Source: a virus. Taken from it: a DNA stretch of 64,000 nucleotides. Under the pieces are notes generated by a model that saw nothing but the letters and a program-made list of their open reading frames with translations, did not search any database and was not told the DNA's origin. The DNA is taken from IMG/VR virus record IMGVR_UViG_3300022744_000001, positions 130,022-194,021 of that record; one strand, given 5' to 3'. Positions 10,845 to 47,667 of the stretch are shown here, in pieces (position 1 is the stretch's first letter; every line of letters begins with the position of its first letter). Position numbers and translations under genes: made by a program.

Positions 10845-10863
10845 GCGAAATTCGACTCGGCAC

Positions 10864-11165: not shown

Positions 11166-11171
11166 TTCTGA

Positions 11172-15242: not shown

Positions 15243-15444
15243 TGATCAGGCCCAGAATCCCCACACGATTGTGTGCGGCGGAATCCAAAGTGACCTGAAT
15301 TGTCGGGTGGGCGGCTAGACTCTCGTTGCAGGGGACCCTGTATTTGAAGAGGGCTTCGACGGCTTTGCGGTCGAGAGTCAGAGCTTCATTCAAGACTTTC
15401 ACAGCGTTCTCGACCTGGGGGCGGTTGGGGAAATCAGTAGTCAT
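15136..15444 (-). CDS. hypothetical protein
   Basis: 102 aa. Confidence 0.55.
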   Translation of the reverse strand: MTTDFPNRPQVENAVKVLNEALTLDRKAVEALFKYRVPCNESLAAHPTIQVTLDSAAHNRVGILGLINGIFGVDSIGYGYIAMEVDENDHSKIERFLVLEPK

Positions 15445-15556
15445 ATCGAAACACTACACCGGGACGCACGGTACCGGAGACGTTTCAAGTAGCAAGGGCA
15501 GCCGAAATAAGCTAGTACGCTGGCCAGCAGGGCGACCTAGTGTGAAACTCATCGAA

Positions 15557-16117
15557 ATGTCACTCCATCTGCTGAGGACTGCTCCGACACGCTCCATAGC
15601 GGCGGGAGTAGTTATTTTGGTGAGTATTTCGCTCGTTGCTTTCCTGGACGCCTTGGACGGGGGCTCCACGCTGGGCTCGCTGTACACGATTGGAGTGGTG
15701 GCCAGCGCCTGGAGATGGGAGTTCCGAGGGGCGGTTGTTACTGTTGTGGTTTCCCTGGCCGCGGCTTTGACATCGGACTACTGGGGCGTCGAGCACCACG
15801 TAGAGTGCATGTCTATCTCTGGTATCTGGTGGACAGAGTTGGCTCGAGCATGTTCATTCCTGACTGCGGGAATGACAACAGCGAGCCTGCGTTTTACGCT
15901 GCGGGAACGAAACGCTTTTGTCACTCAGCTCGAGAAGGCCATGGCCGAAATTCAAGCGCTCGAGGCGTGCCTCCCCATCTGCGCTTGGTGCAAGCGCATT
16001 CGAGAAGGGGAGAAGTGGATGGAATACGACCGTTATTTAGCGACCAAGACCGCTATCACGCACGGCATCTGCCCCGAGTGTGCTCACAATCTTAGGCCGT
16101 CGATTCGGGCCGAATGA
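15557..16117 (+). CDS. membrane sensor-like protein with C-terminal CxxC...HGICPxC zinc-ribbon domain
   Basis: Four predicted TM helices, a coiled-coil, then LPICAWCKRIREGEKWMEYDRYLATKTAITHGICPECAHNL. That motif is seen at the C-termini of PAS/sensor proteins of delta-proteobacteria. Confidence 0.6.
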   Translation: MSLHLLRTAPTRSIAAGVVILVSISLVAFLDALDGGSTLGSLYTIGVVASAWRWEFRGAVVTVVVSLAAALTSDYWGVEHHVECMSISGIWWTELARACSFLTAGMTTASLRFTLRERNAFVTQLEKAMAEIQALEACLPICAWCKRIREGEKWMEYDRYLATKTAITHGICPECAHNLRPSIRAE

Positions 16118-16143
16118 ACCAAGCCCAGGCTTCGCCGAACCCC

Positions 16144-16359
16144 TCAACAGGGTCGAAGTAAGGCCATCCCGTCGTGGATGTTGGGGGCCCAGACGCGGAT
16201 GCCTTGCGGGGGCTCTCCAGGGCGCACGAACACGGTGAGGTTGCGAGAACCCTTCCACCACTCAAAGCTCTCCTCTTCGGCGCTCCCAGCTCGATGGGGC
16301 TCGACCCAGGTTGCCCCGGCCGCGGCCTTCCAGCGCTCTACCAGTTGGTCGCCGGTCAT
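16144..16359 (-). CDS. hypothetical protein
   Basis: 71 aa. Confidence 0.45.
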   Translation of the reverse strand: MTGDQLVERWKAAAGATWVEPHRAGSAEEESFEWWKGSRNLTVFVRPGEPPQGIRVWAPNIHDGMALLRPC

Positions 16360-16583
16360 AGTAGCTTGAATGCCCCGTTCTCACCAAAGAGGGCATCGAA
16401 GACCTTCTTGCGCAGATCGATCTTCGCTTGCTCGGTAGCCATGTAGTCGTCCCCCGTGCGCACGTGAGCCGTCACGTGGGCGACGGGCTCGAGCATGCTG
16501 ATCGCAGCGAGCAGAGGTTGAATGTCGTCGTCGCGGATCTCGCGCTTCAGGTGCACGGTGAGAGTGCGAATGCGGTCGGTCAT
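16356..16583 (-). CDS. hypothetical protein
   Basis: 75 aa, overlapping stops and starts. Confidence 0.5.
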   Translation of the reverse strand: MTDRIRTLTVHLKREIRDDDIQPLLAAISMLEPVAHVTAHVRTGDDYMATEQAKIDLRKKVFDALFGENGAFKLL

Positions 16584-16586
16584 GGT

Positions 16587-16946
16587 TCACCACCCTGGCT
16601 CTTTCGACACGCACGTGGTGCCATCGAAAATCCAACGCCACGAGCCGTCCTCCGAACTCAGCTCGAGGAACGAACCCGCCTTCACATAAGGGGCGATGGC
16701 CTTGAACATCTCTTTCTCTTCCCCCAACTTCTCGTTGGTCAGAGAGATGTTGGTGATGTTCCCTTGACCATCGTTCTTGGCTTCGTAGCCCCAGACCTCG
16801 AGTAGCTCTTCCAAGGTCTCGCAAGAGTCGGTATCCCCCTTTCTGACCCAATGGCCGTAGATCGGTTTGGCTGCGGCGAGCGCGGCTTCTTTGTGCTCGG
16901 CTGCGATGAAAAACTGTTTTCTGCTCAGGTGAATGCTCACGCTCAT
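16587..16946 (-). CDS. hypothetical protein
   Basis: 119 aa. Confidence 0.55.
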   Translation of the reverse strand: MSVSIHLSRKQFFIAAEHKEAALAAAKPIYGHWVRKGDTDSCETLEELLEVWGYEAKNDGQGNITNISLTNEKLGEEKEMFKAIAPYVKAGSFLELSSEDGSWRWIFDGTTCVSKEPGW

Positions 16947-16979
16947 GCGAGCGACTACACCGGCGGTGTTATGTTTCGC

Positions 16980-17294
16980 ATGGCATTCTATGCGTACGTG
17001 AAACAGAGAGGCGGCTGCGACTACACAATCGCGTGTGGCCAGAAGCTAACTCGATTGGAAGCTTTGACTTTGGAGGCGGCTCGAAAGGAAGCACAGGAGA
17101 TGTACGAGAACTACGGGCCCGAGGATGGCTTGAAGAATATCGAGATCATCGAGGGGCGAGTGGTTGAAACGATCGACCTAAAGGCTGTGCAGTTGGAAAG
17201 AGAGCGGGCGGAGAAAGAACGAGAAGAAACCCGTGAAAAAGAGCGCGAGCGGGCCGAGTACGAGCGGCTCAAAGCCAAGTTTGGGGACAAGTGA
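16980..17294 (+). CDS. hypothetical protein (Glu/Arg-rich C-terminus)
   Basis: GGCGGTGTTATGTTTCGCATG motif at the start. Confidence 0.5.
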   Translation: MAFYAYVKQRGGCDYTIACGQKLTRLEALTLEAARKEAQEMYENYGPEDGLKNIEIIEGRVVETIDLKAVQLERERAEKEREETREKERERAEYERLKAKFGDK

Positions 17295-17716
17295 TGGAAG
17301 AGAAGCCAATCATGTTCGGCATTCTCGAAAAACCGGATGAACCCGAACCGCCCCAGTACAAGAAGGGCAAACCGTGTTTGGCGCTCGTGGCGAGCGACGG
17401 GCAAGGCGTCATGCTGCTCGACCAGATCGGGGCGGGGCTCGATTTCTGGTTCGGGGAGTGCGGCACGGACCCCAACGACGAATTCCAAGACGCCCCCGTG
17501 GGCTTGTCCATCTGGGAGGGGCATCTGCATTCGAAACCTCCGGGGTGGTTCGAGGAAGGCATCTGCGAGCTTCGTGGGGACTACCGAGCTATCACAGCCG
17601 AGGAGTGGGAGAGCTACCGGGTCAACGGGTCCTTCTGGAACGCAGCAGACTGGTTCGAGCAGGGGCCCGCAGAACCGGCCGAGACTGACCCACCACTCGA
17701 GGAGCTTATCAAGTGA
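17291..17716 (+). CDS. hypothetical protein
   Basis: 141 aa, acidic. Confidence 0.6.
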   Translation: MMEEKPIMFGILEKPDEPEPPQYKKGKPCLALVASDGQGVMLLDQIGAGLDFWFGECGTDPNDEFQDAPVGLSIWEGHLHSKPPGWFEEGICELRGDYRAITAEEWESYRVNGSFWNAADWFEQGPAEPAETDPPLEELIK

Positions 17717-27281: not shown

Positions 27282-27770
27282 ATGGCATCCGCCGAAGAAG
27301 TGCAAGCGTTTGTAGAGAATCTCGCAGAAAACCTTCAAGCCAGGCTCGAGCTACCCCGGGTCTATGTCCAGGTCAGCACGCACGGTACGTGGCGCATCGA
27401 AGCCCATCTCCTCGAGAACGGGGGTGAGGGTCAGGCCACAGCGGAGCATGTAACCCTGGAAGAAACCATCGTGGAGTTTGAGGAGAGCGTCCAGAAGGAG
27501 CGGGACCGCATCGTCGCGGCCATGGACTGGTCGGACTGCATCGACACGGAGGAGGCTTCCAAAGGTCGCCTGGAGGCCATCGAGGCCCAGCTAGCGGCCC
27601 GGTTCGGGCTCACGGGTGACGTGCGCGCCCAGCTCCGCCAGATGGATTTGGAAAACAAGCTGGACGAGGACAACTTGGTAGCAGATTGGCACCAGGAAGT
27701 GGCTTGGTACGAGAGCTGCTGGGAAGATAACCCGAGTCAAATCGAGCCACTAGAGACCCAATCTCATTGA
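27282..27770 (+). CDS. hypothetical acidic protein
   Basis: 162 aa. Confidence 0.6.
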   Translation: MASAEEVQAFVENLAENLQARLELPRVYVQVSTHGTWRIEAHLLENGGEGQATAEHVTLEETIVEFEESVQKERDRIVAAMDWSDCIDTEEASKGRLEAIEAQLAARFGLTGDVRAQLRQMDLENKLDEDNLVADWHQEVAWYESCWEDNPSQIEPLETQSH

Positions 27771-27783
27771 CTTTCAGCCTAAA

Positions 27784-27829
27784 CCGAACCAGGCCAGCAA
27801 CGAAAAACCGTTGCGTTTGCCTGGTTCGG
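27784..27829 (+). terminator. long imperfect hairpin (terminator or RNA structure)
   Basis: CCGAACCAGGC...GCCTGGTTCGG 11-bp stem plus an inner GCAACG/CGTTGC stem around an AAAAA loop, directly after the stop at 27770. Confidence 0.4.
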
Positions 27830-27863
27830 TGTAAAGAGAGGCGAAAATCAACGCGGGGTAGCT

Positions 27864-28529
27864 GTGGCGGACGAGAAGAAACCAGAGAAGCCGAAGAAAA
27901 GCTGGACAACGCTGTTCGTGCGGGACGAAGAGGAAGCCCCCGCTGCGGCCCCTCCCGTGCCTGCACCTATCCCTGGGGCGGCTACCCGCCCTGCGGTGAT
28001 TCCTATGCCCGCTCCCATGCCTGTGGCGGAGGTGGTGGACCAGGGGATGGTGGACCGCATCCTCGGCGCGCTCCTGGAGTCGGCTCCGGAGGGGTACAAG
28101 GATTTCGTCGCGGACCTGTCCACGCTGGCGGAGGCTCTGCCGACTGAGGACCTGCTCTACAAGGCCGCGCTACGGCTCGCGGTGAGCAAACAGGGGCACT
28201 CGGTGCCCGGGCTCCTGCTCGACTTCGACAAGTGCCTTCGCTTGCTCGAGGAACAGGACCGGTCCTTCAACGTTGATGTGGAAGAGCAGGTCAAGAATCG
28301 GGTCGGGGGTCGCCAAGCCGAGGTCGCTCGCTTGGAAGGGGAAATCAACGCGCTGCGAGAGCAGATGGCCCAGCTCCAAGCTCAGCGAGATGCCGAAGCA
28401 GCGGCCATCGCAACCGACACGGCGAAAATCGAGTCGGCCAAGGTGAAGTTCAAGGGGGCCTACCAAGTGGCCTACTCCCAGCTCCTCGACCAGAAGAACA
28501 AGCTTTCGCTGTATGGCGGAAAGGGTTGA
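27864..28529 (+). CDS. coiled-coil protein (PspA-like composition)
   Basis: GTG start; Pro/Ala-rich N-terminus then long Ala/Glu/Gln heptads. Confidence 0.65.
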   Translation: MADEKKPEKPKKSWTTLFVRDEEEAPAAAPPVPAPIPGAATRPAVIPMPAPMPVAEVVDQGMVDRILGALLESAPEGYKDFVADLSTLAEALPTEDLLYKAALRLAVSKQGHSVPGLLLDFDKCLRLLEEQDRSFNVDVEEQVKNRVGGRQAEVARLEGEINALREQMAQLQAQRDAEAAAIATDTAKIESAKVKFKGAYQVAYSQLLDQKNKLSLYGGKG

Positions 28530-29581
28530 ACGTCGTGAACCAGATCGTGAAAAAGAGCTACTGGGAGAAGCCAGAGGGCAAGTTGGGGGCAGGTCTTCTC
28601 ACGGTAGGAACCGTGGGCGCTGGCATCGCAGGACTGCTCTTCTGGTCGCAGATCGTGACCTGGGTAATCGCCCTGCTCGCGAACACGCTGATCGCAGCGG
28701 GTTTGGGCATTGCCGTCATCACCTTGTTTTTCCTGGCCACGAACCCCAACATTCAGGCGGCCATTGAGTTCCTCTTCAAGCGAGGGACGTACAACCTGAC
28801 CAACGCGATCTACACGATCGACCCCATCGGCGTGCTCCGTGTCGCGGTCATGAACATGCGCAAAAAGGTCAAGGAAATGACCGCGCTGAAGCAAGACCTT
28901 GCGCAGCACGTCAAGCTCCTTGCTCGCACGATCCGGCAGAACGAGGCGGAAAGCCAGAAGGCAGCCCAGAGTCTCGAGAGACTGGACAAGTACGATCGCT
29001 TCGTCGAGAAGCGGCAGGCTGAACGTCTCGCCAACTCAAACGTGGACTATCGTGCGGCCCTCAAGCAGCTCCAGGGTATCGACGCGTGCTTGGACATCTA
29101 CATCAAGGTGACGACGGCGCTGGCCCAGGACTCGGAGAACGAGGCCAACAACCAAGAGAAGGACCGCAACAACCTGCTCAAGAGTCACCGCATCCTCAAG
29201 GCCGCGGCCAAGACTTTGAAGGACCATGAGGCGGCGATGGATATGTTCAACCAGGGCTTGGAAATCCTGGTCGCTGAGCGTACGAACCTTCTCGCTGAGG
29301 TGGACAACTTCGCCCAAATCATCACGGATGCCGTGGGCAAGATCGACGTCGATGCTGGCATCGTCGGTCCCGACGGCAACACGGTCAACGAGTGGGAGCA
29401 GAACGCCCACGTGCTCGAGAAGAAGGTGGACCTGCTTCTCCTCGGTCCCGGTCAGCCCAACCCGCTGAACACAGCGATCGACGCAACCCCCAAGAACCTC
29501 GCCTACGCGAACCGAACCACGAAGAGGGTCACTGGTCGTTCGACCTATACCGACCTGTTCGGCGACGACGACAAGAAGTGA
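28526..29581 (+). CDS. membrane-anchored coiled-coil protein
   Basis: Two N-terminal TM helices then ~250 aa of coiled-coil; TTG or GTG start. Confidence 0.7.
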   Translation: MNVVNQIVKKSYWEKPEGKLGAGLLTVGTVGAGIAGLLFWSQIVTWVIALLANTLIAAGLGIAVITLFFLATNPNIQAAIEFLFKRGTYNLTNAIYTIDPIGVLRVAVMNMRKKVKEMTALKQDLAQHVKLLARTIRQNEAESQKAAQSLERLDKYDRFVEKRQAERLANSNVDYRAALKQLQGIDACLDIYIKVTTALAQDSENEANNQEKDRNNLLKSHRILKAAAKTLKDHEAAMDMFNQGLEILVAERTNLLAEVDNFAQIITDAVGKIDVDAGIVGPDGNTVNEWEQNAHVLEKKVDLLLLGPGQPNPLNTAIDATPKNLAYANRTTKRVTGRSTYTDLFGDDDKK

Positions 29582-29617
29582 ACGTTTTCTAGGGCAAGAA
29601 AGAAGGAATCAAATCAA

Positions 29618-31306
29618 ATGGCATCGAGACTAACACCCCTGACCAAAGGCATCATTGGCGCCGTTCTTTTCGGCGGGATGGCCTACGGGTACATGCACCT
29701 GAAGAAGAACGGCACCATCCCCGCGAGCCCCGAGGCCGCGGAGGCTGCCAACAACGCCAGTGGCGGGGGAGAGGCGTTCCCGGCCCTTGGCGGCGGAGGC
29801 GGCGGCAACAAAGCCTTCCTGAGCGACGTAGGCACCATGGCGAACCCCCTCACGGTGAGCCTGGTGGAGTTCCAGGGGTACGCAGGCTTGCTCGCTGCGA
29901 ACGGTGGCTCCCTGGTCACCCAGCCGGGCTCCATCATGGCGGAGAAGGGAGTCTACGTGAAGGCCATCCTCCAGAACGACGTCCCGGCCCTGCCCGCCCT
30001 GTTTGGCTCGGGCATCGCCCACTGCGCGTGGCGAACCTCGGACTTCTGGGCTCAGGAGCAGCCGAACGTTCGCACGGCGGGCTTCGACGGCCGCGGCATC
30101 GTGATCGTGGACAACACCCAAGGTGCGGACGCGATCATCGCCAAAGACCCCGCGATTCGTAGCGTCGAGGACTTGGCAGGGCACACCGTGGGCCTCTTGG
30201 AGTTCACCCCGTCCCACGGCCTTCTGCTCTACGCCCTCGAGAATTCGAGCCTCAGCGCCCGGAAGCAAGCATCGGTCAAGGTCATCCCCACCAACATCGA
30301 TGAGGGGCTCGCTGGGGTCCGCGCCCAGCTCGAGAGCAGCAACGTGGATGCCGTGGTGCTCTGGGACCCGGAGCTGTCCGTGGCTCTGGAGACCATCCCC
30401 GGTGCCCACGTGGTCTATTCGACCAAGGACGCCAGCTCGCTCATCTACGACGTCATGGTATGCGACAACCGAATCGTGTCGGACAAGGCCAACGACGACG
30501 TCCTGACCGCTTTCGTGGATGGCTGGCTCGAGGGCAACAAGCGGGTCAATGCCAACCCGAAGCTCGGCACCCAGGCGCTCGTCGCCAACGAGGAGATGTA
30601 CAAGCTCCTGGCTGGAAAGAAGAGCCCCGAGTTCATCACGCACCTGTTCAAAAACCTGGTGCTCACCAACCTGACGGACAACGTGCGCATCCTCGGCTTG
30701 GCAGGAGACACAAACCAGTACGAGAACGTCTATGCCATGTTCGATCGCATCTACCGCGGCACGAAACGCACGCTGAAGGACCAGAACGCACCGATCATTC
30801 AGCCGAGCAACTCGTTCGAGTACAAGTACATCAAGAGGTTGCAGGCGAAGGACTCGTCCGTGACGGCCGCGGCTCAGAAGCCGGAGTTCGTGTTCACGGC
30901 AAGCGAGGCCCAGGTGGCGGCCAAGAAGGCCCCCGTGCTCACCAAGCCGGTCGAGATCAACTTCGCCACCAACAGCACGGAGTTGACCAAGGACGGTGAG
31001 AACGTCATCGACAACGACCTCATGCCGATCCTCCAGAGCAACAGCTCGGCCTACGTGCGCGTCAGTGGCAACACGGACTCGACGGGCTCCGCCGCGGTCA
31101 ACCATCGCATCTCCTACGGCCGCGCCAACGTCGTGGTGAAGTACATGGTCGAGCAGTGGGGTATCAGCCACGACCGTTTCCTGGTCGAAGGTAACGGCCC
31201 GGATAAACCCCTCTGCAACGAGCTGAGCCCCGAAGACGGCCTCTCCCTTGAGCAGTGCCGTGCCCGTAACCGCACAACCCGAGTAGCTGTCCTCCCAAGA
31301 GAATGA
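29618..31306 (+). CDS. ABC transporter substrate-binding protein (NMT1/SsuA-like) fused to a C-terminal OmpA/MotB-like domain
   Basis: N-terminal TM/signal; SsuA/TauA-like periplasmic binding fold; the C-terminal ...VSGNTDSTGSAAVNHRISYGRANVV...NRTTRVAVL matches the OmpA-C peptidoglycan-binding motif. Confidence 0.8.
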   Translation: MASRLTPLTKGIIGAVLFGGMAYGYMHLKKNGTIPASPEAAEAANNASGGGEAFPALGGGGGGNKAFLSDVGTMANPLTVSLVEFQGYAGLLAANGGSLVTQPGSIMAEKGVYVKAILQNDVPALPALFGSGIAHCAWRTSDFWAQEQPNVRTAGFDGRGIVIVDNTQGADAIIAKDPAIRSVEDLAGHTVGLLEFTPSHGLLLYALENSSLSARKQASVKVIPTNIDEGLAGVRAQLESSNVDAVVLWDPELSVALETIPGAHVVYSTKDASSLIYDVMVCDNRIVSDKANDDVLTAFVDGWLEGNKRVNANPKLGTQALVANEEMYKLLAGKKSPEFITHLFKNLVLTNLTDNVRILGLAGDTNQYENVYAMFDRIYRGTKRTLKDQNAPIIQPSNSFEYKYIKRLQAKDSSVTAAAQKPEFVFTASEAQVAAKKAPVLTKPVEINFATNSTELTKDGENVIDNDLMPILQSNSSAYVRVSGNTDSTGSAAVNHRISYGRANVVVKYMVEQWGISHDRFLVEGNGPDKPLCNELSPEDGLSLEQCRARNRTTRVAVLPRE

Positions 31307-31551
31307 CCGACTGGGAGACAGCCTGGGTTGTCCTTGTGGTGGTGCTTGTGCCGCCGCTCCTGTCCCCCTTCCTGGCAGTCTGGGTGTACCCGATTCAGGC
31401 GGGGTTGTACCTGCCGTTTTGCGCGCTGCTCTACCTGGTCAGTCGGAAGGGTCGAGATAGTCGAGAGAGGTTTACCCAGGGGTTCTGTGTTGCAGTTTTC
31501 GTAGCCCAAATAGCGGGCTTCGTTCTTTACCTAGCCGCGCACATCGAATGA
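31303..31551 (+). CDS. small membrane protein
   Basis: Two TM segments. Confidence 0.45.
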   Translation: MTDWETAWVVLVVVLVPPLLSPFLAVWVYPIQAGLYLPFCALLYLVSRKGRDSRERFTQGFCVAVFVAQIAGFVLYLAAHIE

Positions 31552-31557
31552 GGAGTC

Positions 31558-32343
31558 ATGTGGAATCCGTATAAATCGCTGCCCGCCACGACGGGGAACG
31601 CTTTGAGTGTAGGGTCGGTTGCTGTGGTGCTCTTGGTCTGGTCGCTGCTGAGCGGCTTGGACATTGTGCCGCCCTCCAAGCTCCCGTCGCCCTGGGAGAC
31701 CGCACAGGCTCTTGTTCACTTGGCTTGGGACGGCAAGGAGAGCTTGCTCGGGCAAGCCATCCTGGCCTCGGTCATGCGCATCGTGTGGGCCAGCATCTTC
31801 GTGTTCGTCATCGGCATCATCTTCGGCGTGGGAATGGGGGCTTCCCCGGTCATCAATGCGATCATCTCGCCCCTCATTGACCCGTTTCGTTCTGCCCCGG
31901 TGGCGGCGCTTCTGCCCATCCTGATCATGTGGTTTGGCATCGGCGAGACCATGAAAGTCGTGTTCCTGTACATCGGCGCCGTGGTCTACTTCATCCCCAT
32001 GGTTCGGGATGCGGTTCGTAGCGTCCCACAGAACTACTGGATCAGTGCCTACGACTTGAACGCAACGAAGTTCGAGTCGGTGATGAAAGGCGTGGTCCCC
32101 CTGGCCAAACCCCGTATCGCGGATGCCTTCGTGGCGGCAGTGTCCATCGAGTGGACGTACATCACGGTGGCGGAGTTCGTGAATGCGCAATCCGGGCTCG
32201 GCCAGATCATCTCGAATGCGAAGCGGTTCTCAGCGATGGACAGCATCTTTGCCACCATCGGCGTGATCATCGCGCTCGCCCTCATCACCTACCACGGCAT
32301 GATGGCGATCAAAAAGAACCTCTACCCCTGGGAAGTCGAGTAG
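31558..32343 (+). CDS. ABC transporter permease (SsuC/TauC/NrtB-type)
   Basis: Six TM helices with a BPD-type permease loop. Confidence 0.85.
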   Translation: MWNPYKSLPATTGNALSVGSVAVVLLVWSLLSGLDIVPPSKLPSPWETAQALVHLAWDGKESLLGQAILASVMRIVWASIFVFVIGIIFGVGMGASPVINAIISPLIDPFRSAPVAALLPILIMWFGIGETMKVVFLYIGAVVYFIPMVRDAVRSVPQNYWISAYDLNATKFESVMKGVVPLAKPRIADAFVAAVSIEWTYITVAEFVNAQSGLGQIISNAKRFSAMDSIFATIGVIIALALITYHGMMAIKKNLYPWEVE

Positions 32344-32345
32344 CC

Positions 32346-32684
32346 ATGGAAGTTCGCCTTCGAAGGGATACCTCCCGACCTACCGAGTACATGATGCGCT
32401 GGCTTGGTGCTGTAGCGGCCCTCCACGCGTTTCGGGAGCACCAGGACCGAACCAAGCGGCCCACTGCATGGTCGCATCACGATACTTTGGCTCTCATCGC
32501 CACGAATGTTCGCAAGCATATGACCGACCCGAGATGGTTTCTCCGGCCCACGGAGGAAGACATCACGAAGGTCATCGCGTACGGGCACGAGAACTTTCGC
32601 GAATACCTCAGTGATGGGTTGAGAGACCTGAACCAACTTCAAACCTTCTTTGATCTTCTCAACCAGGACGCCGTGGCATCATGA
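32346..32684 (+). CDS. hypothetical protein inside the ABC operon
   Basis: 113 aa between the permease and ATPase genes. Confidence 0.5.
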   Translation: MEVRLRRDTSRPTEYMMRWLGAVAALHAFREHQDRTKRPTAWSHHDTLALIATNVRKHMTDPRWFLRPTEEDITKVIAYGHENFREYLSDGLRDLNQLQTFFDLLNQDAVAS

Positions 32685-33544
32685 GTGAAAACACGAAATA
32701 CCCCATGCTTGTCCTTGACAAGATCACGCAGGACTTCCCTTCCCCAGAGGGTCCGGTACGAGTTCTCGACGACATTTCACTCGCCTTCGACGGTCCTGGG
32801 ATGAACATGCTCATGGGGCCCTCGGGCTCGGGCAAGTCCACGCTCATGCGGCTCATGGGCGGCGTGCGCATTCCTTTCGACGTGAAGTGCCCGACGTCCG
32901 GCCGAATCTTCATCGACGGCAAGGAAGTGGGAGACGACCAGCACGACGACGTGGTGACCGTCTTCCAAGCGTACAACAACCGGCCCGACCTCACTGTGTT
33001 CGAGAACGTCATGTTCCCGTTCACCCTGAAATACTGGCGAAAGAAGGTCTCCAAGGAAGAGGCCAAGAAGCGGGTGACCGACATACTCGAGGTCGTGGGT
33101 CTGGCGGACAAGGCCAAGCTCCGGCCCGCGGCCCTCAGCGGCGGCCAGAAGCAGCGTGTGGCCATCGCTCGAGCCCTGGCCCTCCGCCCCCGCATCCTGC
33201 TCATGGACGAACCTTTCGGCGCGCTCGACGCCCAGACCCGGGCGGACCTGCAACGGTTCATGGTCAAGATGCACAAGGAATACCCGTGCCTCACCATCTT
33301 CGTGACCCATGACGTCACGGAGGCCATCACGTTGGGGGATCGGATCATCGTGCTCTCTGCTCGACCGGCACGCATTGCAGAGCAGATCGTGGTCGCCCAA
33401 CCCCAAGACCAGCGGGCGGAATGGCTGCACTCGGCGGAGGCCAAGCTGTACGAACAGCAGATCATCCAGGTCTTGCAGAACACGAAAAGCCCTGGCCAGG
33501 TTCGTGTCAGCGTCGGCGTGAGCCCCGCTCCGGCAACCCCGTGA
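32681..33544 (+). CDS. ABC transporter ATP-binding protein
   Basis: Walker A GPSGSGKST, signature LSGGQKQR, Walker B ILLMDEP, H-loop VTHD. Confidence 0.9.
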   Translation: MSENTKYPMLVLDKITQDFPSPEGPVRVLDDISLAFDGPGMNMLMGPSGSGKSTLMRLMGGVRIPFDVKCPTSGRIFIDGKEVGDDQHDDVVTVFQAYNNRPDLTVFENVMFPFTLKYWRKKVSKEEAKKRVTDILEVVGLADKAKLRPAALSGGQKQRVAIARALALRPRILLMDEPFGALDAQTRADLQRFMVKMHKEYPCLTIFVTHDVTEAITLGDRIIVLSARPARIAEQIVVAQPQDQRAEWLHSAEAKLYEQQIIQVLQNTKSPGQVRVSVGVSPAPATP

Positions 33545-33726
33545 CCGACAAGCGCAAGATTTTGATCCGAACCCTTCTCGCGGAAACGGGTGCTTCCTAC
33601 AGCACGTGTGCGAAGTACCTCGACAAGCACAAAGGGAACTACGACACGGCCCTGGCTGAGCTGAAATTCGGCCCGAAAAAGAAGGGAGGACGACGTGCCC
33701 GCAGTGCAGAAGACCCCAAAGCCTAG
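33541..33726 (+). CDS. small UBA-like protein
   Basis: GTG start; ILIRTLLAETGASYSTCAKYLDKHKGNYDTALAEL resembles the EF-Ts N-terminal UBA-like helices. Confidence 0.45.
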   Translation: MTDKRKILIRTLLAETGASYSTCAKYLDKHKGNYDTALAELKFGPKKKGGRRARSAEDPKA

Positions 33727-33973
33727 ATGCAAGCACGAGGTCGAAGAGGGCGGTGGGTCGCACTCGTGGTTCACTCAGTGTAGCCGAGCCGAGCACCACA
33801 CGGGGGAGCACCGCTACCACCTCTCGTTCAAGGAAATGTTGGCCGAGGGCACGGCGGTCTACAACATCGAGCGCGAAACCAAGTGCCGTGAGCAAGAAAT
33901 CGTAAAGCATCACGAGCAAATCGCGAAGCTGCAAGAAGAGATCAAGAACCTACGAACGAAGGGCGAGCCATGA
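33695..33973 (+). CDS. hypothetical protein
   Basis: GTG start preceded by GGAGGA. Confidence 0.5.
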   Translation: MPAVQKTPKPRCKHEVEEGGGSHSWFTQCSRAEHHTGEHRYHLSFKEMLAEGTAVYNIERETKCREQEIVKHHEQIAKLQEEIKNLRTKGEP

Positions 33974-34836
33974 CCAACGCAGAAATTACGAGGCACGAGG
34001 TTGAGGCCCTCTACAGCCGTGAGGCTGTTGTTGAGCCGGTCATGCGAGCCATTGGTCGCGCATGCGAAGAGCCGATGGCCATGGTTCGGTTTCTGAGTCG
34101 GTACGCCAACCTCAACGGGTGGTTTGGTTCCGGCGTGGCGGCCCTGGCGGGCAAGATTGGCCGCAGTCGTTCTGTGTTCCTCGACCCCGAGGAGCCCATC
34201 GAGGATATTGCGGATCGTTCTGTGCTCGTGGGCTCGTATTTCTTCGACGCGGCTCGAGACGAGTTCGACGACCGGGATACGCCTCATCGGGATACACACC
34301 GGTGCCTTGCTCAAGCGTGCATCAAAGCCACGTATTTTTACTACCTGAATACAAGCCAACTGAGGGGCCACCAGGTTTTCACGACCGTCAATGAGATGCT
34401 CAAACAACCGTTGTGGTTGCAGGGCATCGGGTCGCGAGTGGCCACGGGCTACGGCGTGACCACGTCGGACATCAGCATCGAGTTGTTCCGCTCCATGGGC
34501 TACCACTTGGGGAGCGAGATTCTGGCCGACGCGGAGTTCTCTCTGATCGACGTGGCCATGCGAAATCGGCTCCCTGCTTTGACCCACTACCTCCAAACCA
34601 CGGAGGTCGAAATCGCAGGACAGAAGCACAACGGGTACGCCTGGATCGGCTTACACTCGGGTCATGGGGCATCCAAGGAAGCCGACCACTTCGCTTGGGC
34701 AACCCAGGGGGTCAATGAGGCGCTCAAGTACACCCGTCCGGAGAACCGAGACGAGCTGCGTCACCAAGTGCACCTGGGAATCGGCTCGTTCGTGCGTGAC
34801 CACCAGGAGTTCTTCGCTCACGTGAGTCTCGACTGA
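33970..34836 (+). CDS. hypothetical protein (possibly a heme-oxygenase-like helical fold)
   Basis: 288 aa, all-helical; His/Asp-rich HRDTHRC...DHFAWAT segments. Confidence 0.6.
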   Translation: MTNAEITRHEVEALYSREAVVEPVMRAIGRACEEPMAMVRFLSRYANLNGWFGSGVAALAGKIGRSRSVFLDPEEPIEDIADRSVLVGSYFFDAARDEFDDRDTPHRDTHRCLAQACIKATYFYYLNTSQLRGHQVFTTVNEMLKQPLWLQGIGSRVATGYGVTTSDISIELFRSMGYHLGSEILADAEFSLIDVAMRNRLPALTHYLQTTEVEIAGQKHNGYAWIGLHSGHGASKEADHFAWATQGVNEALKYTRPENRDELRHQVHLGIGSFVRDHQEFFAHVSLD

Positions 34837-37436: not shown

Positions 37437-37681
37437 CCCCTCGAGAAGAGGCTGAGCGCGACCCCAAGGTGCGGCAGATCTCCCGCATCCTGCTCAGGAT
37501 GTACCTGGGGTATCTGGTGCTGTTCTTGTTGCTGATCTGGCTCAAAGCGTCGCCATGGCTCATCTTGTCCGTGTGCATCTCCGGGCTCATTGCCGCACCG
37601 GTGATGCTGGTCGTCTTTTGGGTCGCGTACCTTGACGCTCGAGCTAGGGTTTCCCGCCGACGACGTGGGCTCGAACCGTGA
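37433..37681 (+). CDS. small membrane protein
   Basis: Start overlaps the previous stop; two TM helices. Confidence 0.5.
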   Translation: MTPREEAERDPKVRQISRILLRMYLGYLVLFLLLIWLKASPWLILSVCISGLIAAPVMLVVFWVAYLDARARVSRRRRGLEP

Positions 37682-38858
37682 TGGGGGCGTCCTCGGGCCC
37701 GCGCCAGTAGGGCTCGATGTGGATGGCCTTCCGGAGGCTGTGATTTGGCCCGTGGGCCTGGAACTTCCAGTGGCCCCGGACCAGGCTTTGGATGGTCGGG
37801 GAGCTTCGGCGCTTGCCTTCCAGGTAGTCGGCGAGGGCAGGCCGCACGTCAAGCTCGATGGGTTTGCCGACCCTAAAAGTCCGGGCGAGGGGCTCCGGGT
37901 TCGTCCGGCCCCCTTCCTTGGGGCTCATCATCGCGCTCTTGTGTTTGCCCACCTGCTTGACGTTGGCGGGGTCGCTCATGGCCAGGCACGTGTTCAAGAC
38001 CAAGCGGGTGAGAAGAACGAGGGTACGAGAGTCCCGGGTGTCGAGGCTCCCTCCCGTCGCTTCGGGGAAGGCTGTGAGGGACTTGTCCGAGGTCATCTCC
38101 CGTACCGGCCATTTGGTGCGGTGCAGGTTCACGGAACGGCTGTGGGCCAAGATGGACCACTTGTCCCCGATGGTAGTCACGTGGATGAAGTCGATGGGCT
38201 CATCCACCCCAGACTCAGAATTCGCAGTGAAAAGAAAGTTGGTTGGTAGGTCGATGATGAACGACGACCATGGAGGCAGGATCTCAACGTCGGGGACCGA
38301 GGTCGCCATGAGAGCAGCGGCGTAGCGGTGACCTCCGAGCTGGAGCACCGGGTAGGCGTTGTGAGCCCACTGGGCGGCCCCCAGCATCAGCTCCTGGCTC
38401 GAGGGGTCCTCCTGGAGCGCTTTGTAGGCCCACGTGGCGTTGACCTGCACCAGCATGTTCAGCATGGCTTTGCCCATGCGAGCGGTGGTGTCGAGGGTGT
38501 CCATGCGGTAGCCGTTGCCGAAGGTGAGAGGCCACCAGTATTGACCCAAACTCATGAGGTAGTCCTTCGTCACTACCGTGGTCCCAGGCGGACCATCCAT
38601 GTACACCAGGGGTTTCCCGCCCTCTGGAGCTGCAATGCACACAGCAAGCTGCGCCATCTCGCGCGCTTTGGCCAGGAAGTCATCCGGCGGCACCAGGCGG
38701 TTTGGGTCGGGGGTTCTCTGCAAAAGAACTTGCCTGACCCGTTCCGGAAGGTCGAGCTTCGCGGCAACAAGGTTCACCAGGTCGAGAAAACTATGCACGT
38801 GCTGTTCCTCGGTGTCAGAGCAAGAGTACACCTGGGGGACGTATGCTGAAGGCGGCAT
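37644..38858 (-). CDS. hypothetical 404-aa protein
   Basis: The largest unassigned ORF; coherent composition; C-terminal VRGHWKFQAHGPNHSLRKAIHIEPYWRGP segment was not recognised. Confidence 0.7.
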   Translation of the reverse strand: MPPSAYVPQVYSCSDTEEQHVHSFLDLVNLVAAKLDLPERVRQVLLQRTPDPNRLVPPDDFLAKAREMAQLAVCIAAPEGGKPLVYMDGPPGTTVVTKDYLMSLGQYWWPLTFGNGYRMDTLDTTARMGKAMLNMLVQVNATWAYKALQEDPSSQELMLGAAQWAHNAYPVLQLGGHRYAAALMATSVPDVEILPPWSSFIIDLPTNFLFTANSESGVDEPIDFIHVTTIGDKWSILAHSRSVNLHRTKWPVREMTSDKSLTAFPEATGGSLDTRDSRTLVLLTRLVLNTCLAMSDPANVKQVGKHKSAMMSPKEGGRTNPEPLARTFRVGKPIELDVRPALADYLEGKRRSSPTIQSLVRGHWKFQAHGPNHSLRKAIHIEPYWRGPEDAPITVRAHVVGGKP

Positions 38859-45610: not shown

Positions 45611-45874
45611 ATGAAAACGATGCTTGCTGCCCTCGGGGTTCTTCTCGCCACGCAAACCAGAGAGGGGTGTGACCCCCCGAAACAGCGCCCGTTGGAACCG
45701 GGGGAGCACGCCACCTTCATCAGCGAACTCACCTACGTGAAGGACGATCGCGTGGGAATCTGCTACGCGGTGAAAGCTTCGCGTACGCATAACGGCTACA
45801 TGGTTCAAGCTTTTACAGCGGTCCCGTGTGACAAGGTTGAGATACTGACCAACCAGAAAATCCGATGCCAATGA
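45611..45874 (+). CDS. small secreted protein
   Basis: MKTMLAALGVLLATQ signal peptide. Confidence 0.5.
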   Translation: MKTMLAALGVLLATQTREGCDPPKQRPLEPGEHATFISELTYVKDDRVGICYAVKASRTHNGYMVQAFTAVPCDKVEILTNQKIRCQ

Positions 45875-46476
45875 CCGACCTAACACGTAACAGAATCAGC
45901 AAATTCCTCAGCTATGTGCTCCGCCACCATCCGGAGGCTGTCGGGCTCCAACTCGACGAGAACGGCTGGGTGAGCCTCAACCTGCTCGTTGATGCGTGCA
46001 ACGCCAAGGGGCAGGAGATGACTCGAGGTCAGGTCATCGACGTCGTGAACACGAGCGAGAAGAAACGGTTCGCGCTCAGCGAGGATGGGCAGCGCATCCG
46101 GGCAAGCCAGGGGCACTCGGTCGAAGTGGATTTGGCCTACGAGGAGAAGGCACCCCCGATGGTGCTCTACCACGGGACCGTGGCCAAGTTCCTGCAACCA
46201 ATCCAGGCCGAGGGGCTCAAGAAGATGGCGCGTCACCACGTGCATCTATCTGAGGATGTCGAGACTGCTGAACGAGTAGGGATGCGTCGCGGCCGTCCCG
46301 TCGTCCTTCGCGTCGATGCGGATGAGATGGCCGCAGCCGGGCACCGATTCTACCAGTCCGCCAACGGCGTATGGCTCACCGAGCACGTTCCGGCGAAGTA
46401 CATCGGGTTCCCCGATGGAGCGACCTGGGTTTACCTTCACGAGATCCGCAATGACGAACAAACCGCTCACGGTTGA
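45865..46476 (+). CDS. kptA: RNA 2'-phosphotransferase Tpt1/KptA
   Basis: SKFLSYVLRHHPE, RASQGHS, LYHGT and RHHVHLS...GVWLT match the Tpt1 family motifs across the full length. Confidence 0.85.
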   Translation: MPMTDLTRNRISKFLSYVLRHHPEAVGLQLDENGWVSLNLLVDACNAKGQEMTRGQVIDVVNTSEKKRFALSEDGQRIRASQGHSVEVDLAYEEKAPPMVLYHGTVAKFLQPIQAEGLKKMARHHVHLSEDVETAERVGMRRGRPVVLRVDADEMAAAGHRFYQSANGVWLTEHVPAKYIGFPDGATWVYLHEIRNDEQTAHG

Positions 46477-46699
46477 GAAGCTCCTCAACGGCGTCATCAT
46501 CGACACCCTTGGGGGTCCCGGCGGCGGGCCCGACGCCTGCAACTGCCATGCAGCGGCCAAAGCCTTCATTGCGCTCAAGCTGCTGAACCTGCCCATCGAG
46601 GATGAAGAGGCGATGCGGCACGGGTTGCGTGAGGACAACCTGTACAACATGGACTTCCTTGAAGCCGAGGGGTGGCCGCGCGACAAAGATTCGGTGTAA
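46451..46699 (+). CDS. hypothetical protein
   Basis: 82 aa; its stop TAA lies inside the next GGTGTAATCG motif. Confidence 0.45.
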   Translation: MTNKPLTVEKLLNGVIIDTLGGPGGGPDACNCHAAAKAFIALKLLNLPIEDEEAMRHGLREDNLYNMDFLEAEGWPRDKDSV

Positions 46700-46709
46700 T
46701 CGAGGCATG
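46687..46709 (+). promoter_or_regulatory. start-proximal promoter-like motif (class 1), pointing antisense into the phosphatase gene
   Basis: TTCGGTGTAATCGAGGCATG; the downstream ORF largely overlaps the minus-strand phosphatase CDS. Confidence 0.4.
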
Positions 46710-46791
46710 CACATCTGCGGGGACGAAATCAACGCAGCAGTCGCGTGTGTGACCTCAGCCCCTCACGCGATCCCTGCTTTCATCGGATGGG

Positions 46792-47667
46792 TTAGGGGCG
46801 TGCTTGTCGGTTTCCGTGTACGCGACCGATCGCCTGCTGAAACCCCAAGGTGCTCGGGATGTACGTCGGAACCGGGCAATACTCCTTCCGCGCTCGGACC
46901 TGAAAAATCTCCTTCGTGTTGAGACACAGGGCGGTCAAGTGGCCGCCGTGCACCGCTCCCGTGTCGATGCCCCAGCACTCGACTCCCGTGGCTTCGTTGA
47001 CGTGCCAGAGCGGTTGGGTGAGGTTGAACGCCTCGTGTCCGAACACGACGTTGCTGGGCCCGTCCCATTTGCGTGTCCAGTGGTAGGCTTCGGGCTTGGG
47101 CGGATAGCCGAGTAGCTCGGGCTTGGCGTAATCGACGGGCACGAACTTCTTCTCGTCCGTGACCCACATCAGCCGCATGACGTCGTTCAAGTCTTGCTGC
47201 TCGAGCGCAACCCCGGGCATGAGGCCGCCATGGACCAGGGTCCAATGCGTGTGCTGGGTGAAAGACGTCCAGTGCCTCCCCTCCCCTTGGGTCACGAAGT
47301 TCCCCGGCCACAGCTGCACCATGTGCGGGAGCGCCTTGAGCCACTCCAGGTCTTCCTGGCTCAGCTTCGCATTGGCCGCGGCGTCCGCGGGCTTCAGCGG
47401 TCGCATGTTGTTGGGCCGACCCGTGGTGAGCTTCAGAAGCTCGTTCTTCCGCCATCGGATGTGGATCTCGTCGTGGTTGCCCTTCACGGCTTTGAAGCCG
47501 CTCTCGCGGATGAACCGAACGACCTCAGCCCCATAAGGCCCCTTGTCAAGGAAGTCCCCCACGAAATAGACCGTGTCCCCTTGGCCAGGACCGATCTTAT
47601 CGAGCAAGTCACGTAGCTCGTAGTAGCAGCCGTGAACGTCACCAATGCAGTAAATTTTGGAGTCCAT
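46792..47667 (-). CDS. Ser/Thr phosphatase-type metallophosphoesterase (PP-lambda/ApaH-like)
   Basis: GDVHGC, GDFLDKGP and GNHD motifs. Confidence 0.85.
   Translation of the reverse strand: MDSKIYCIGDVHGCYYELRDLLDKIGPGQGDTVYFVGDFLDKGPYGAEVVRFIRESGFKAVKGNHDEIHIRWRKNELLKLTTGRPNNMRPLKPADAAANAKLSQEDLEWLKALPHMVQLWPGNFVTQGEGRHWTSFTQHTHWTLVHGGLMPGVALEQQDLNDVMRLMWVTDEKKFVPVDYAKPELLGYPPKPEAYHWTRKWDGPSNVVFGHEAFNLTQPLWHVNEATGVECWGIDTGAVHGGHLTALCLNTKEIFQVRARKEYCPVPTYIPSTLGFQQAIGRVHGNRQARP

Follow-up and report, generated by a model that had tools for sequence, protein, structure and literature searches.

A phage-borne cassette combining an ABC importer, a peptidoglycan-binding substrate-binding protein and coiled-coil proteins

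The cassette and its limits

The ABC transporter genes in the 64,000-nucleotide stretch of viral DNA analysed here (the window) are the core of a ~7-kb cassette, 27864..34836 on the plus strand, carried by a phage genome of ~448 kb. The cassette encodes, in order, a 221-residue coiled-coil protein (cc221, 27864..28529), a 351-residue coiled-coil protein with two transmembrane segments (T351, 28526..29581), a 562-residue substrate-binding protein fused to an OmpA-like domain (SBP-OmpA, 29618..31306), a TauC/SsuC-type permease (31558..32343), an ABC ATPase (32681..33544) and a 288-residue heme-oxygenase-like diiron enzyme (HDO, 33970..34836). Our preferred reading, in which we place middling confidence, is that these genes form an envelope-spanning, wall-tethered import system together with a membrane scaffold that would condition the host envelope.

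The limits of the cassette come from comparison with locus L005, which shares the six proteins with the window (42, 44, 56, 65, 64 and 66% identity, in the order above) and nothing else. The initial annotation had drawn the block at 29581-33544; its five ORFs are all confirmed at their coordinates on the plus strand, and the conserved unit reaches past that block at both ends. Stop and start codons overlap at 28526/28529, 31303/31306, 32681/32684 and 33970/33973, the first of these being the 4-bp overlap of the cc221 stop with the T351 start.

The proteins of the cassette

The fusion of the binding protein to an OmpA/MotB-type domain, proposed earlier from the letters, withstands profile searches. 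Residues 449-535 of SBP-OmpA match Pfam OmpA at E 1.1e-12 (48.5 bits versus a gathering score of 27.2), and a PDB profile search returns OmpA-like domains at E 8e-14. D487 and R502 are both there, and the GNTD(487)STG...LS..R(502)A motif and the Cys533/Cys547 pair are invariant in our family alignment (A1). Judged by these matches and residues, the C-terminal domain is a genuine OmpA-type peptidoglycan-binding domain. Ahead of it, residues ~1-27 hold a conserved '+LTxxxK' motif with a hydrophobic anchor; a linker rich in Gly and Ala leads to a divergent binding domain of NMT1/SsuA type (~72-400), and a further linker joins this to the OmpA-like domain itself at ~440-558. The binding domain is weak in Pfam (NMT1 16.9 bits, below the cut-off of 20.5), its NCBIfam matches (TIGR03427 at E 9.5e-18, SsuA_fam at E 1.7e-13) lie far below the curated cut-offs, and only residues ~168-257 can be aligned to solved binding proteins. 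The N-terminal motif is retained even in phage G and LR756501 and is conserved across Gram-negative and Gram-positive hosts. The hydropathy of the N-terminus falls below a standard transmembrane threshold, and the segment may therefore be cleaved as a signal peptide.

The initial annotation took fusions of this kind to be unusual. That view does not hold: more than 1000 homologues share the architecture at 49-67% identity, the NCBI name for it is routine, and it has been published in a PspA-linked operon (see below). The canonical G-N-T-D...LS..RA peptidoglycan-binding motif in a C-terminal domain is shared with the MotB, Pal and YiaD anchors, and the pairing of membrane anchor and peptidoglycan-binding domain with MotB in particular. 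Unlike those proteins, SBP-OmpA holds a complete solute-binding domain between anchor and OmpA domain, and it is partnered by an ABC transporter where they have a stator or the Tol system.

The permease matches BPD_transp_1 (E 8e-19) and the TauC model (E 3.5e-36), has five transmembrane helices in a hydropathy scan and an EAA-like loop, SAYDLNATKFESVMKGVVPLAKP, and is 62-65% identical to its bacterial (62%) and L005 (65%) orthologues. The ATPase matches ABC_tran at E 5.4e-29 and is 53-64% identical to its orthologues (bacterial 53%, L005 64%). As first noted, all of its canonical motifs can be read: Walker A GPSGSGKST, signature LSGGQKQR, Walker B LLMDEP and H-loop THD. Together these genes support the presence of a complete binding-protein-dependent ABC system in the window.

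Several smaller ORFs are interspersed with the conserved genes. The small membrane protein of the initial annotation (31303..31551, 82 residues) has two predicted transmembrane helices; its only homologues are copies of the same contig, and it is a lineage-specific insert. The next ORF (32346..32684) is present, at 112 residues rather than the 113 first given, and the public gene call makes it 97. It has a low GC3 (0.66) and no homologue in Pfam, NCBIfam or the other loci, and we consider it either doubtful as a gene or an insert specific to this lineage, with both its start and its reality uncertain. Between the ATPase and HDO genes, public gene calls place two mutually overlapping ORFs of 61 (33541..33726) and 92 residues (33695..33973); other loci hold no homologues of them save same-contig copies, and both are lineage-specific. 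Unrelated small ORFs also lie nearby in other cassettes, for example a 46-residue ORF in L005 and gp244 in phage G.

cc221 is soluble; its N-terminal half is rich in Pro and Ala, and a coiled coil makes up its C-terminal part. Profile comparisons with A_236, the first gene of a related bacterial operon, indicate that the two are homologous (hhalign probability 93%, E 3.7e-7; hmmsearch E 1.7e-5). T351 has transmembrane segments at residues 20-38 and 47-65 followed by ~250 residues of long helices, and belongs to a family of 1073 representatives at 50% identity. Twelve of 44 family members match Pfam PspA_IM30, collinearly and below the cut-off. The window protein itself has no Pfam match, Foldseek and hhalign searches with it gave nothing significant, and its comparison with the operon PspA profile was no better than the reversed control. 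An AF2 model, of low confidence (mean pLDDT 61), places a helical hairpin at 100-152/155-225. We tentatively describe T351 as a membrane-anchored coiled-coil protein of PspA/ESCRT-III-like type. Outside the coiled coil, the motifs KSFWxRPEG and IDPIGVL are strongly conserved, which suggests specific contacts.

The last conserved gene encodes a protein of the heme-oxygenase-like diiron oxidase/oxygenase fold. No HDO gene lies within 7 kb of any of the 35 IMG/VR cassettes described below, which places it outside the universal core.

Distribution and related systems

A T351 profile retrieved 35 IMG/VR contigs, which range from 19 to 389 kb and in 22 cases reach 100 kb or more; some may be misclassified bacterial DNA. 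cc221 lies directly 5' of T351 in all 35, and T351 is followed collinearly by SBP-OmpA in 31. The permease and ATPase come next in 28 of those 31 (one ATPase match is an 88-residue ORF); L123 stops at the permease, and L108 and L109 stop at the binding protein. Among the remainder, the sequence ends directly after T351 in L102, L103 and L116, L115 has nothing of the cassette in the ~7 kb past T351, and L121 has permease and ATPase after T351 without a binding-protein match. The peptidoglycan-binding motif is present in 30 of 37 binding-protein matches.

Full-length SBP-OmpA is also encoded by phage G (gp249 and gp250), 15 Lak megaphages and LR756501. T351 stands immediately 5' of it in the Lak megaphages and LR756501, and the five-gene order from cc221 to the ATPase recurs in the Lak megaphages and a 735-kb phage. 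In the literature we came across no account of the cassette as it occurs in phages.

Bacillus phage G resembles the window in being a huge phage whose gp243-gp250 cluster holds homologues of the permease, the ATPase and, over its full length, SBP-OmpA (27-32% identical), together with a coiled-coil protein of membrane-stress type. The annotations there read only 'ABC-like transporter permease', 'ABC transporter' and 'OmpA/MotB domain'. It differs in its Gram-positive host, its gene order, its lack of an HDO gene and its two SBP-OmpA paralogues, gp249 with the peptidoglycan-binding Asp replaced and gp250 with the motif lost. In place of T351 it has gp247, a soluble protein that scores 29.6 bits against the operon PspA profile (reversed sequence -2.7 bits; 200 shuffles at most 9.2 bits) and that this match identifies as a PspA homologue.

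The bacterial counterpart is an operon reading A_236, SBP-OmpA, permease, ATPase, A_284, (HDO), PspA, AAA, TerB, which recurs in ~80 genomes of Lysobacterales, Burkholderiales, Myxococcota and Geobacter. The association of PspA and AAA+ with genes for an ABC ATPase, a permease and the solute- and peptidoglycan-binding protein PBPB-OmpA has been published from comparative genomics only (Ravi et al. 2024, mSystems, PMC11237479). This PspA/Snf7 and AAA+ operon has orthologues, in unchanged order, of the window's SBP-OmpA (51%), permease (62%) and ATPase (53%); it opens with the cc221 homologue A_236 and, in about half of cases, includes an HDO-fold gene (48% identical). Unlike it, the window has T351 5' of the binding protein, is carried by a phage and has transporter genes that branch outside the bacterial clade; PspA_IM30, AAA+ and TerB genes are missing from the window, as is a transmembrane protein of A_284 type.

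Possible functions

In the wall-tethered import system that we favour, SBP-OmpA would be exported and probably held in the inner membrane by its conserved N-terminal segment, while its OmpA domain would grip peptidoglycan; membrane anchor and wall grip together would fix the ligand-binding domain between wall and membrane. The binding protein would pass a small periplasmic solute to the permease and ATPase for import, and the diiron enzyme may oxidise the imported solute in the cytoplasm. At that site, a scaffold attached to the membrane would be built from T351 and cc221, the corresponding place being taken by PspA in phage G and in the bacterial operon. The cassette might thereby do more than scavenge a nutrient, allowing the phage to keep the interface of inner membrane and wall intact, or remodelled, through a long infection. 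Defence-system models gave no match to it.

The initial annotation suggested an auxiliary metabolic function in nitrate, sulfonate or bicarbonate transport, and at the level of families the similarity is real. On this account, a NitT/TauT-type importer of a sulfonate, taurine, nitrate, a urea-like compound or an osmolyte would feed or osmotically protect the host, the diiron enzyme would be a catabolic oxygenase, and the coiled-coil genes would be unrelated or regulatory. TauC is the closest model to the permease, with ProW and choline permeases also matched; the binding protein matches urea, SsuA and taurine models; and PHROGs labels the ATPase family 'moron, auxiliary metabolic gene'. An oxygenase adjoining the importer is the classic layout of Tau and Ssu systems, and the window shares with TauABC/SsuABC this layout, the Type I importer architecture with its permease and ATPase families, and the NMT1/SsuA-type fold. 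We nevertheless regard a plain nutrient importer as unlikely. Every substrate-specific NCBIfam model falls far below its cut-off, and the binding protein is very divergent and alignable to solved structures only over the short segment given above. It differs from the Tau and Ssu binding proteins in its N-terminal anchor and C-terminal OmpA domain, and nutrient-binding proteins are not known to be tethered to peptidoglycan. Unlike TauD and SsuD, the oxygenase here is of the HDO fold, and most phage cassettes lack it. cc221 precedes T351 in every one of the 35 loci, SBP-OmpA follows in 31 of them, and the bacterial version is tied to PspA, AAA+ and TerB. The invariable linkage of the transporter to two coiled-coil/membrane proteins points to a role at the envelope more than to simple nutrient scavenging.

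A second alternative, to which we give the same low weight, would make cc221, T351 and SBP-OmpA a wall-anchored periplasmic sensor of ligand or strain controlling a cytoplasmic membrane scaffold, with the permease and ATPase as an accessory energising or signalling module. A Bacteroidota-like chromosome carries the trio without an adjoining permease or ATPase, so the transporter may be dispensable for the core function. The conserved T351 motifs, the retention of the cytoplasmic N-terminal motif of SBP-OmpA across phyla and the two paralogues kept by phage G are also consistent with sensing. Against it, permease and ATPase follow in fixed order in 28 of the 35 viral loci and in every proteobacterial operon whose sequence reaches far enough, and the ATPase motifs and EAA-like loop are intact, as expected of a working importer.

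Origin of the block

The phage-like context first proposed is borne out by the flanks, which are rich in ORFans, include phage-type genes (a NinI-like phosphatase, Tpt1, an AcrVA2-like protein and HNH) and contain no housekeeping genes; 493 phage records hold full-length homologues of a 793-residue protein encoded ~5 kb beyond the window. Other elements share the cassette alone and not its flanks. In a tree, the window and other phage-borne transporter copies fall outside a monophyletic bacterial clade. The core genes have a GC3 of 0.82-0.86 against a window mean of 0.73, and a codon adaptation index trained on the other genes of the window is higher for the block too, indicating that the block follows the window's codon preference and is more strongly biased. 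Identical arrangement and flanks occur in independent ENA (448,224 bp) and Logan assemblies, and the T351 gene is near-identical on a 447,761-bp JGI contig. Recently captured host DNA, as the initial annotation alternatively proposed, an assembly chimera or a bacterial chromosome is thus very improbable: full-length bacterial homologues at 49-56% identity and the raised GC3 speak for capture, but other phage-like copies are at least as close as any bacterial one, codon preference matches the window, the assemblies agree, and the flanks are of phage type.

Non-coding elements

A strong RNA hairpin at 27783..27830 (plus strand; inverted repeat I1) lies between the upstream gene, which ends at 27770, and cc221, and marks the 5' edge of the cassette. 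The region 27768-27862 folds at -42.5 kcal/mol (z = -5.9), with none of 200 shuffles equally stable. No U-tract lies 3' of the hairpin, which may be a terminator or a processing site.

The motif reported at the start of the original block is present on the plus strand as the 13-mer TTCTAGGGCAAGA (29587..29599), or in its longer form TTTCTAGGGCAAGA (29586..29599), 19 nt before the SBP-OmpA ATG. Relaxed versions of TTCTAGGGCAAGA show no enrichment. One more exact copy lies at 10891 (10890-10903 for TTTCTAGGGCAAGA), 11 nt before the ORF at 10914, and two exact copies of the 13-mer in 64 kb are more than expected by chance.

A predicted ABC importer within a five-gene cassette

The five ORFs that the initial annotation read as a complete ABC importer are all found on the plus strand, with their positions unchanged: a solute-binding protein fused to an OmpA-like domain (SBP-OmpA, 29618..31306), an 82-aa ORF with two predicted transmembrane helices, a permease (31558..32343), an ORF of 112 aa rather than 113 (32346..32684), and an ATPase (32681..33544). 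The translated ATPase has an intact Walker A, Q-loop, signature, Walker B and H-loop (GPSGSGKST, VFQ, LSGGQKQR, LLMDEPFGALD and THD) and matches ABC_tran at E 5.4e-29 (102 bits versus 25). The permease belongs to BPD_transp_1 (Pfam PF00528, 68.5 bits versus a cut-off of 26.4), and its EAA coupling loop, SAYDLNATKFESVMKGVVPLAKP, aligns with SARDLGATPWEAVRHAVLPMAMP in the bacterial orthologue; its best NCBIfam model is TauC (E 3.5e-36), yet at 125 bits versus a cut-off of 342. By these motifs and profiles, the two proteins are predicted to be components of a type I binding-protein-dependent ABC importer of the NitT/TauT group. The 112-aa ORF is doubtful because profile searches found no homologues for it and its GC3 is low.

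The OmpA-like C-terminus proposed for the 562-aa binding protein withstood profile searches, with PF00691 covering residues 449-535 (Pfam E 1.1e-12; 48.5 bits versus a gathering score of 27.2) and solved OmpA-like domains matched at E 8e-14 in a PDB profile search. In OmpA-like domains, as structures of A. baumannii OmpA and Pal show, an Asp and an Arg touch the diaminopimelate of peptidoglycan. The corresponding motif, GNTD(487)STG...N..IS..R(502)A, is present here. Both D487 and R502 are invariant across the family alignment, the Arg even in the copies of phage G and the Lak phages, and we predict that Asp487 and Arg502 bind peptidoglycan. The domain also contains an invariant Cys pair.

The middle of the protein is a very divergent NMT1/SsuA-type binding domain, scoring 16.9 bits against Pfam NMT1, under the cut-off of 20.5. 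It matches the NCBIfam models TIGR03427 ('urea ABC SBP'; E 9.5e-18, 64 bits, curated cut-off 334) and SsuA_fam (E 1.7e-13, 50 bits, curated cut-off 164), and its homologues carry precomputed PF09084 assignments. These matches support membership of the NMT1/SsuA superfamily only. Alignment to solved binding proteins (SsuA 2x26, 3e4r) is limited to about 90 residues (~168-257), and the pocket-like motifs CAWRTSDFWAQEQPN, VDNTQGxD, WDPDLS, YSTK and LIYD are strongly conserved in the family. At the N-terminus, a '+LTxxxK' motif followed by a hydrophobic stretch, itself of modest hydropathy, persists in copies ranging from the Proteobacteria type to those of phage G and LR756501; this favours a retained membrane anchor over a cleaved signal peptide.

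Two further genes, cc221 (27864..28529) and T351 (28526..29581), precede the transporter, and the window therefore holds cc221, T351, SBP-OmpA, permease and ATPase on one strand and in cassette order across 27864..33544. A 183-kb phage-like contig (L005) has 27864..34836 in common with the window and nothing else, with identities of 42% for cc221, 44% for T351, 56% for SBP-OmpA, 65% for the permease, 64% for the ATPase and 66% for a 288-aa protein that follows (33970..34836, plus strand). Stop and start codons overlap throughout the block. In the 93-nt gap 5' of the first cassette gene lies a stem-loop (27783-27830) with a 12-bp outer and a 6-bp inner stem, computed at -42.5 kcal/mol in a 95-nt context (z = -5.9) and followed by no U-tract. 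The exact 14-mer TTTCTAGGGCAAGA occurs at 10890-10903 and 29586-29599, 11-19 nt 5' of plus-strand start codons: TTCTAGGGCAAGA stands 19 nt upstream of the SBP start, and its sole other exact copy stands 11 nt upstream of the ORF at 10914. Versions of TTTCTAGGGCAAGA with one mismatch were not enriched. This element may be a phage promoter or a translational element.

A PDB sequence search with the 288-aa protein returned no matches. A fold search assigned it to the heme-oxygenase-like helical fold, and it has an invariant His/Glu/Asp set compatible with a dimetal site. Heme-oxygenase-like diiron oxidases/oxygenases (HDO) outscored TenA, and no ThiY-specific signal was found; on these grounds, thiamine-pyrimidine salvage by a ThiXYZ-like importer and a TenA-fold protein was set aside as the less likely reading.

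The fusion and its operon are widespread in bacteria

The initial annotation considered the joining of a binding protein to an OmpA domain unusual. Our searches contradict this, with 1014 matches at E <= 1e-5 among 5.8 billion proteins; the best 120 of them show 86-100% query coverage, 49-67% identity and PF00691, and several are named 'phosphate ABC transporter substrate-binding/OmpA family protein' by NCBI. One-genome-per-species data contain relatives at 212 loci, in Lysobacterales (Tahibacter, Agrilutibacter), Burkholderiales (Undibacterium, Accumulibacter), Myxococcota and Geobacter. The Agrilutibacter operon opens with the coiled-coil gene A_236, continues through SBP-OmpA, permease and ATPase to A_284, whose coiled-coil product has a hydrophobic segment at its N-terminus, and A_285, and closes with genes for PspA_IM30, an AAA+ ATPase of 608 aa and a TerB-like protein. 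This order is conserved over 80 bacterial loci by tblastn. Among all 90 loci, A_236 was detected in 77, A_284 in 75, PspA in 56, AAA in 55, A_285 in 45 and TerB in 39.

The association of ABC/PBPB-OmpA operons with PspA and AAA+ proteins was described by comparative genomics (Ravi et al. 2024, PMC11237479), and thus both the domain fusion and the bacterial operon are already known. The SBP-OmpA, permease and ATPase of the window are collinear with those of Agrilutibacter and 51%, 62% and 53% identical to them, respectively. Unlike that operon, the window has no genes for PspA_IM30 and the two-domain AAA+ ATPase: profiles of the operon PspA, AAA, TerB and A_284 gave zero matches in any frame of its 64 kb. 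We consider cc221 homologous to A_236, the gene that opens the bacterial operon, because hhalign gives a probability of 93% (E 3.7e-7) and hmmsearch an E of 1.7e-5.

The cassette recurs in very large phages

Among 50,697 phage records, full-length homologues of SBP-OmpA form three groups, 26-27% identical to it over residues ~72-559. Bacillus phage G (497 kb) encodes SBP-OmpA as gp249 and gp250, adjoining a permease (gp243) and an ATPase (gp245); all 15 of 15 Lak megaphages (540-552 kb), from human and animal gut, have the gene; and a full-length copy is present in the record-sized LR756501/LR756503 (735 kb). Matches also came from a few small gut fragments. The PHROGs family phrog_25518, which is unannotated, matches the entire fusion (E 1.4e-40). 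T351 homologues lie directly upstream of SBP-OmpA in Lak and LR756501. The five-gene order is also found in L005, L088-L090 and LR756501, and in Lak every gene except cc221 was detected. The transporter genes of phage G are those of the window but stand in a different order. By megablast, the 24 kb around the block had no match in the same 50,697 records, and searching IMG/VR with exact 50-mers did not recover this contig.

Scanning IMG/VR with the T351 family recovered 35 viral contigs, between 19 and 389 kb long; 22 reach 100 kb or more. Directly 5' of T351 stands cc221 in all 35 loci; the collinear run extends into SBP-OmpA in 31 and, in 28 of those, through permease and ATPase, a count that takes in one locus (L128) whose ATPase match is an 88-aa ORF only. 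The incomplete loci stop at the permease (L123) or at the SBP (L108, L109), or their sequence ends right after T351 (L102, L103, L116); L115 has nothing after T351 within ~7 kb, and L121 has permease and ATPase without an SBP match. The peptidoglycan-binding motif is retained in 30 of 37 SBP matches. HDO, PspA and AAA+ are absent within 7 kb in all 35 loci. The HDO gene, also present at L005 and L088-L090, is thus an addition that these loci share with the proteobacterial type.

Bacteria can have the T351-type arrangement too: a Bacteroidota-like chromosome (L092) has cc221, T351 and SBP-OmpA. This trio (ENA ERZ511480 NODE_269, 8323-11846) has no adjacent ABC permease or ATPase and is followed by a gene for an AAA_15/AAA_21-type ATPase; the missing transporter suggests that the trio can work without one. 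Matches to 'Acinetobacter phage MD-2021a' were left out of the phage instances. These are multi-contig records with tauC and ssuC genes, and look like bacterial DNA filed as phage.

We found no literature account of a phage-borne cassette of this kind, and none that gives the fixed five-gene order or reports the cassette in phage G, Lak or the 735-kb phage. In a review of 224 jumbo-phage genomes, ABC comes up solely with SbcC and a DNA-modification ATPase, and the terms OmpA, PspA, solute and permease are absent; the only related remark we found, in a Jug-phage paper, concerns a pspA-like gene beside terD.

T351 is a membrane-anchored, possibly PspA-like coiled coil

T351 has two N-terminal transmembrane helices followed by long helices, and its family comprises 1073 representatives at 50% identity, with the sharply conserved motifs KSFWxRPEG and IDPIGVL beside the coiled coil. 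Pfam PspA_IM30 (PF04012) is matched by 12 of 44 family members (best E 7.3e-8), and the next most frequent Pfam family by 4. Two members that we examined score 19-21 bits versus the PF04012 cut-off of 33.9, collinear from profile position 22. The T351 of the window itself has no PspA match in a Pfam profile search. Local hhalign gave no significant match of T351 to the operon PspA, A_284 or A_236, and against the operon PspA neither hhalign nor hmmsearch did better than a reversed-sequence control; for these reasons we stop short of calling T351 a homologue of PspA. The AF2 model has a low mean pLDDT of 61, with a hairpin (100-152/155-225) at pLDDT ~80, and Foldseek against the PDB returned non-significant helical bundles (E above 0.01), including BAR, eisosome and CdvB2 proteins.

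The phage G cassette holds a soluble PspA homologue, gp247: the operon PspA profile gives it 29.6 bits, its reversed sequence -2.7 bits and 200 shuffles 9.2 bits at most. This lends indirect support to the PspA-likeness of T351, which is possibly a PspA/ESCRT-III-like protein anchored in the membrane.

A proposed role at the host envelope

Most likely, we infer, the cassette stabilises or remodels the host envelope during a long infection with a large burst. The N-terminal segment of the SBP would serve as a membrane anchor and its OmpA domain would grip peptidoglycan, holding the binding domain between membrane and wall, where it would pass a small solute on to a dimeric TauC-type permease driven by the ATPase. 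At the same site T351, in the membrane, and cc221, in the cytoplasm, would form a scaffold, a role that in bacteria and phage G would be taken by PspA, with or without the AAA+ ATPase. The putative diiron enzyme may convert the imported compound.

Two rivals to this envelope role are less likely. The cassette may be a plain auxiliary metabolic gene (AMG) set for a nutrient or osmolyte, much as the initial annotation suggested; the closeness of the permease to TauC favours this reading, and the predicted wall anchor and the constant company of cc221 and T351 speak against it. It may alternatively be a sensor or anchor device in which transport is secondary, a reading supported by the Bacteroidota-like trio and opposed by the 28 loci that run through permease and ATPase. 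PADLOC matched no system-specific defence model, only generic domains (the OmpA-like part of ZorB and ABC-type ATPases).

A bolder form of the envelope role, which we hold to be unlikely, is that the five genes constitute a phage-encoded membrane-remodelling machine typical of the largest phages, with an ESCRT-III/PspA-like scaffold placed by a wall-anchored ABC system. Such a machine would build or stabilise the host-membrane vesicles, invaginations or repair patches needed by a very large virion factory, and would amount to a 'phage shock' system belonging to the phage and not the host.

Translation, CRISPR and metabolic genes are known cargo of huge phages. In the literature searched, a conserved envelope module has so far been absent from that picture. 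If the cassette maintains or remodels host membrane and wall, a requirement specific to very large phages would have been identified. A widespread bacterial operon and a large family of orphan proteins (>1000 clusters) would also gain a function, and there would be a reason why a solute-binding protein is attached to peptidoglycan. The fusion itself is ordinary; the putative envelope module conserved in huge phages is experimentally accessible in phage G, which is cultivable.

The cassette is a long-standing resident of a huge phage

Capture of the transporter block from a host, the other origin allowed by the initial annotation, is largely refuted by the tree, codon usage, independent assemblies and phage-type flanks. 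In a tree built by neighbour joining from concatenated SBP, permease and ATPase sequences, all bacterial (A_284/PspA-type) loci form one clade, and outside it fall all T351-type/phage loci: the window, L005, L088-L090, Lak, LR756501 and phage G. Comparison of codon usage cut both ways: the GC3 of the core genes (0.82-0.86) does lie above the window mean (0.73 ± 0.07), but their codon preference is that of the window, which speaks against a foreign origin. A codon adaptation index derived from the other genes of the window puts them at the 90-99th percentile. Together with the high GC3, this indicates that the same preferred codons are used more strongly, as expected of well-expressed resident genes.

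Assemblies made independently, from ENA (448,224 bp) and Logan, show the same arrangement and flanks, and a JGI contig of 447,761 bp has a near-identical T351 gene; the nearly equal sizes of 448,224 and 447,761 bp suggest that the genome may be complete. Around the block lie ORFans and phage-type genes (NinI-like phosphatase, RNA 2'-phosphotransferase, AcrVA2-like, HNH, NUDIX, RNA ligase), and no tRNA genes were found in the 64-kb window. On the extension past the 3' end (L091), ~5 kb beyond the window, a 793-aa protein (15124-17505) aligns end to end with phrog_2426 (E 4e-178). Full-length homologues, 35% identical, occur in 493 phage genomes and include some with a vWFA-domain annotation; this is evidence that the contig is phage. 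We conclude that the element is a huge phage in which the cassette has long been resident.

Several neighbours merit mention on their own account. A 404-aa ORF on the minus strand (37644-38858; 384 aa in the public gene call) has a precomputed match to AcrVA2-like PF26125, a possible anti-CRISPR, and matches phrog_15934 at its C-terminus. RNA-repair-type genes occupy 45865-47667 and 63291-64000 (continuing at L091 10810-11823), and comprise a Tpt1 RNA 2'-phosphotransferase (phrog_5470, E 4e-68), a NinI-like metallophosphatase encoded on the other strand and, running off the 3' end of the window, an RNA ligase. At 60137-61414, a 425-aa ORF (416 aa in the Logan gene call) combines DFP/CoaB-like and class II aldolase-like domains (phrog_35624, E 2e-41) and is followed by a NUDIX hydrolase (61411-61920). 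A minus-strand gene (57894-59651) encodes a 585-aa protein whose right-handed beta-helix signal and PHROG match are both weak; it may be fibre-, spike- or depolymerase-like.
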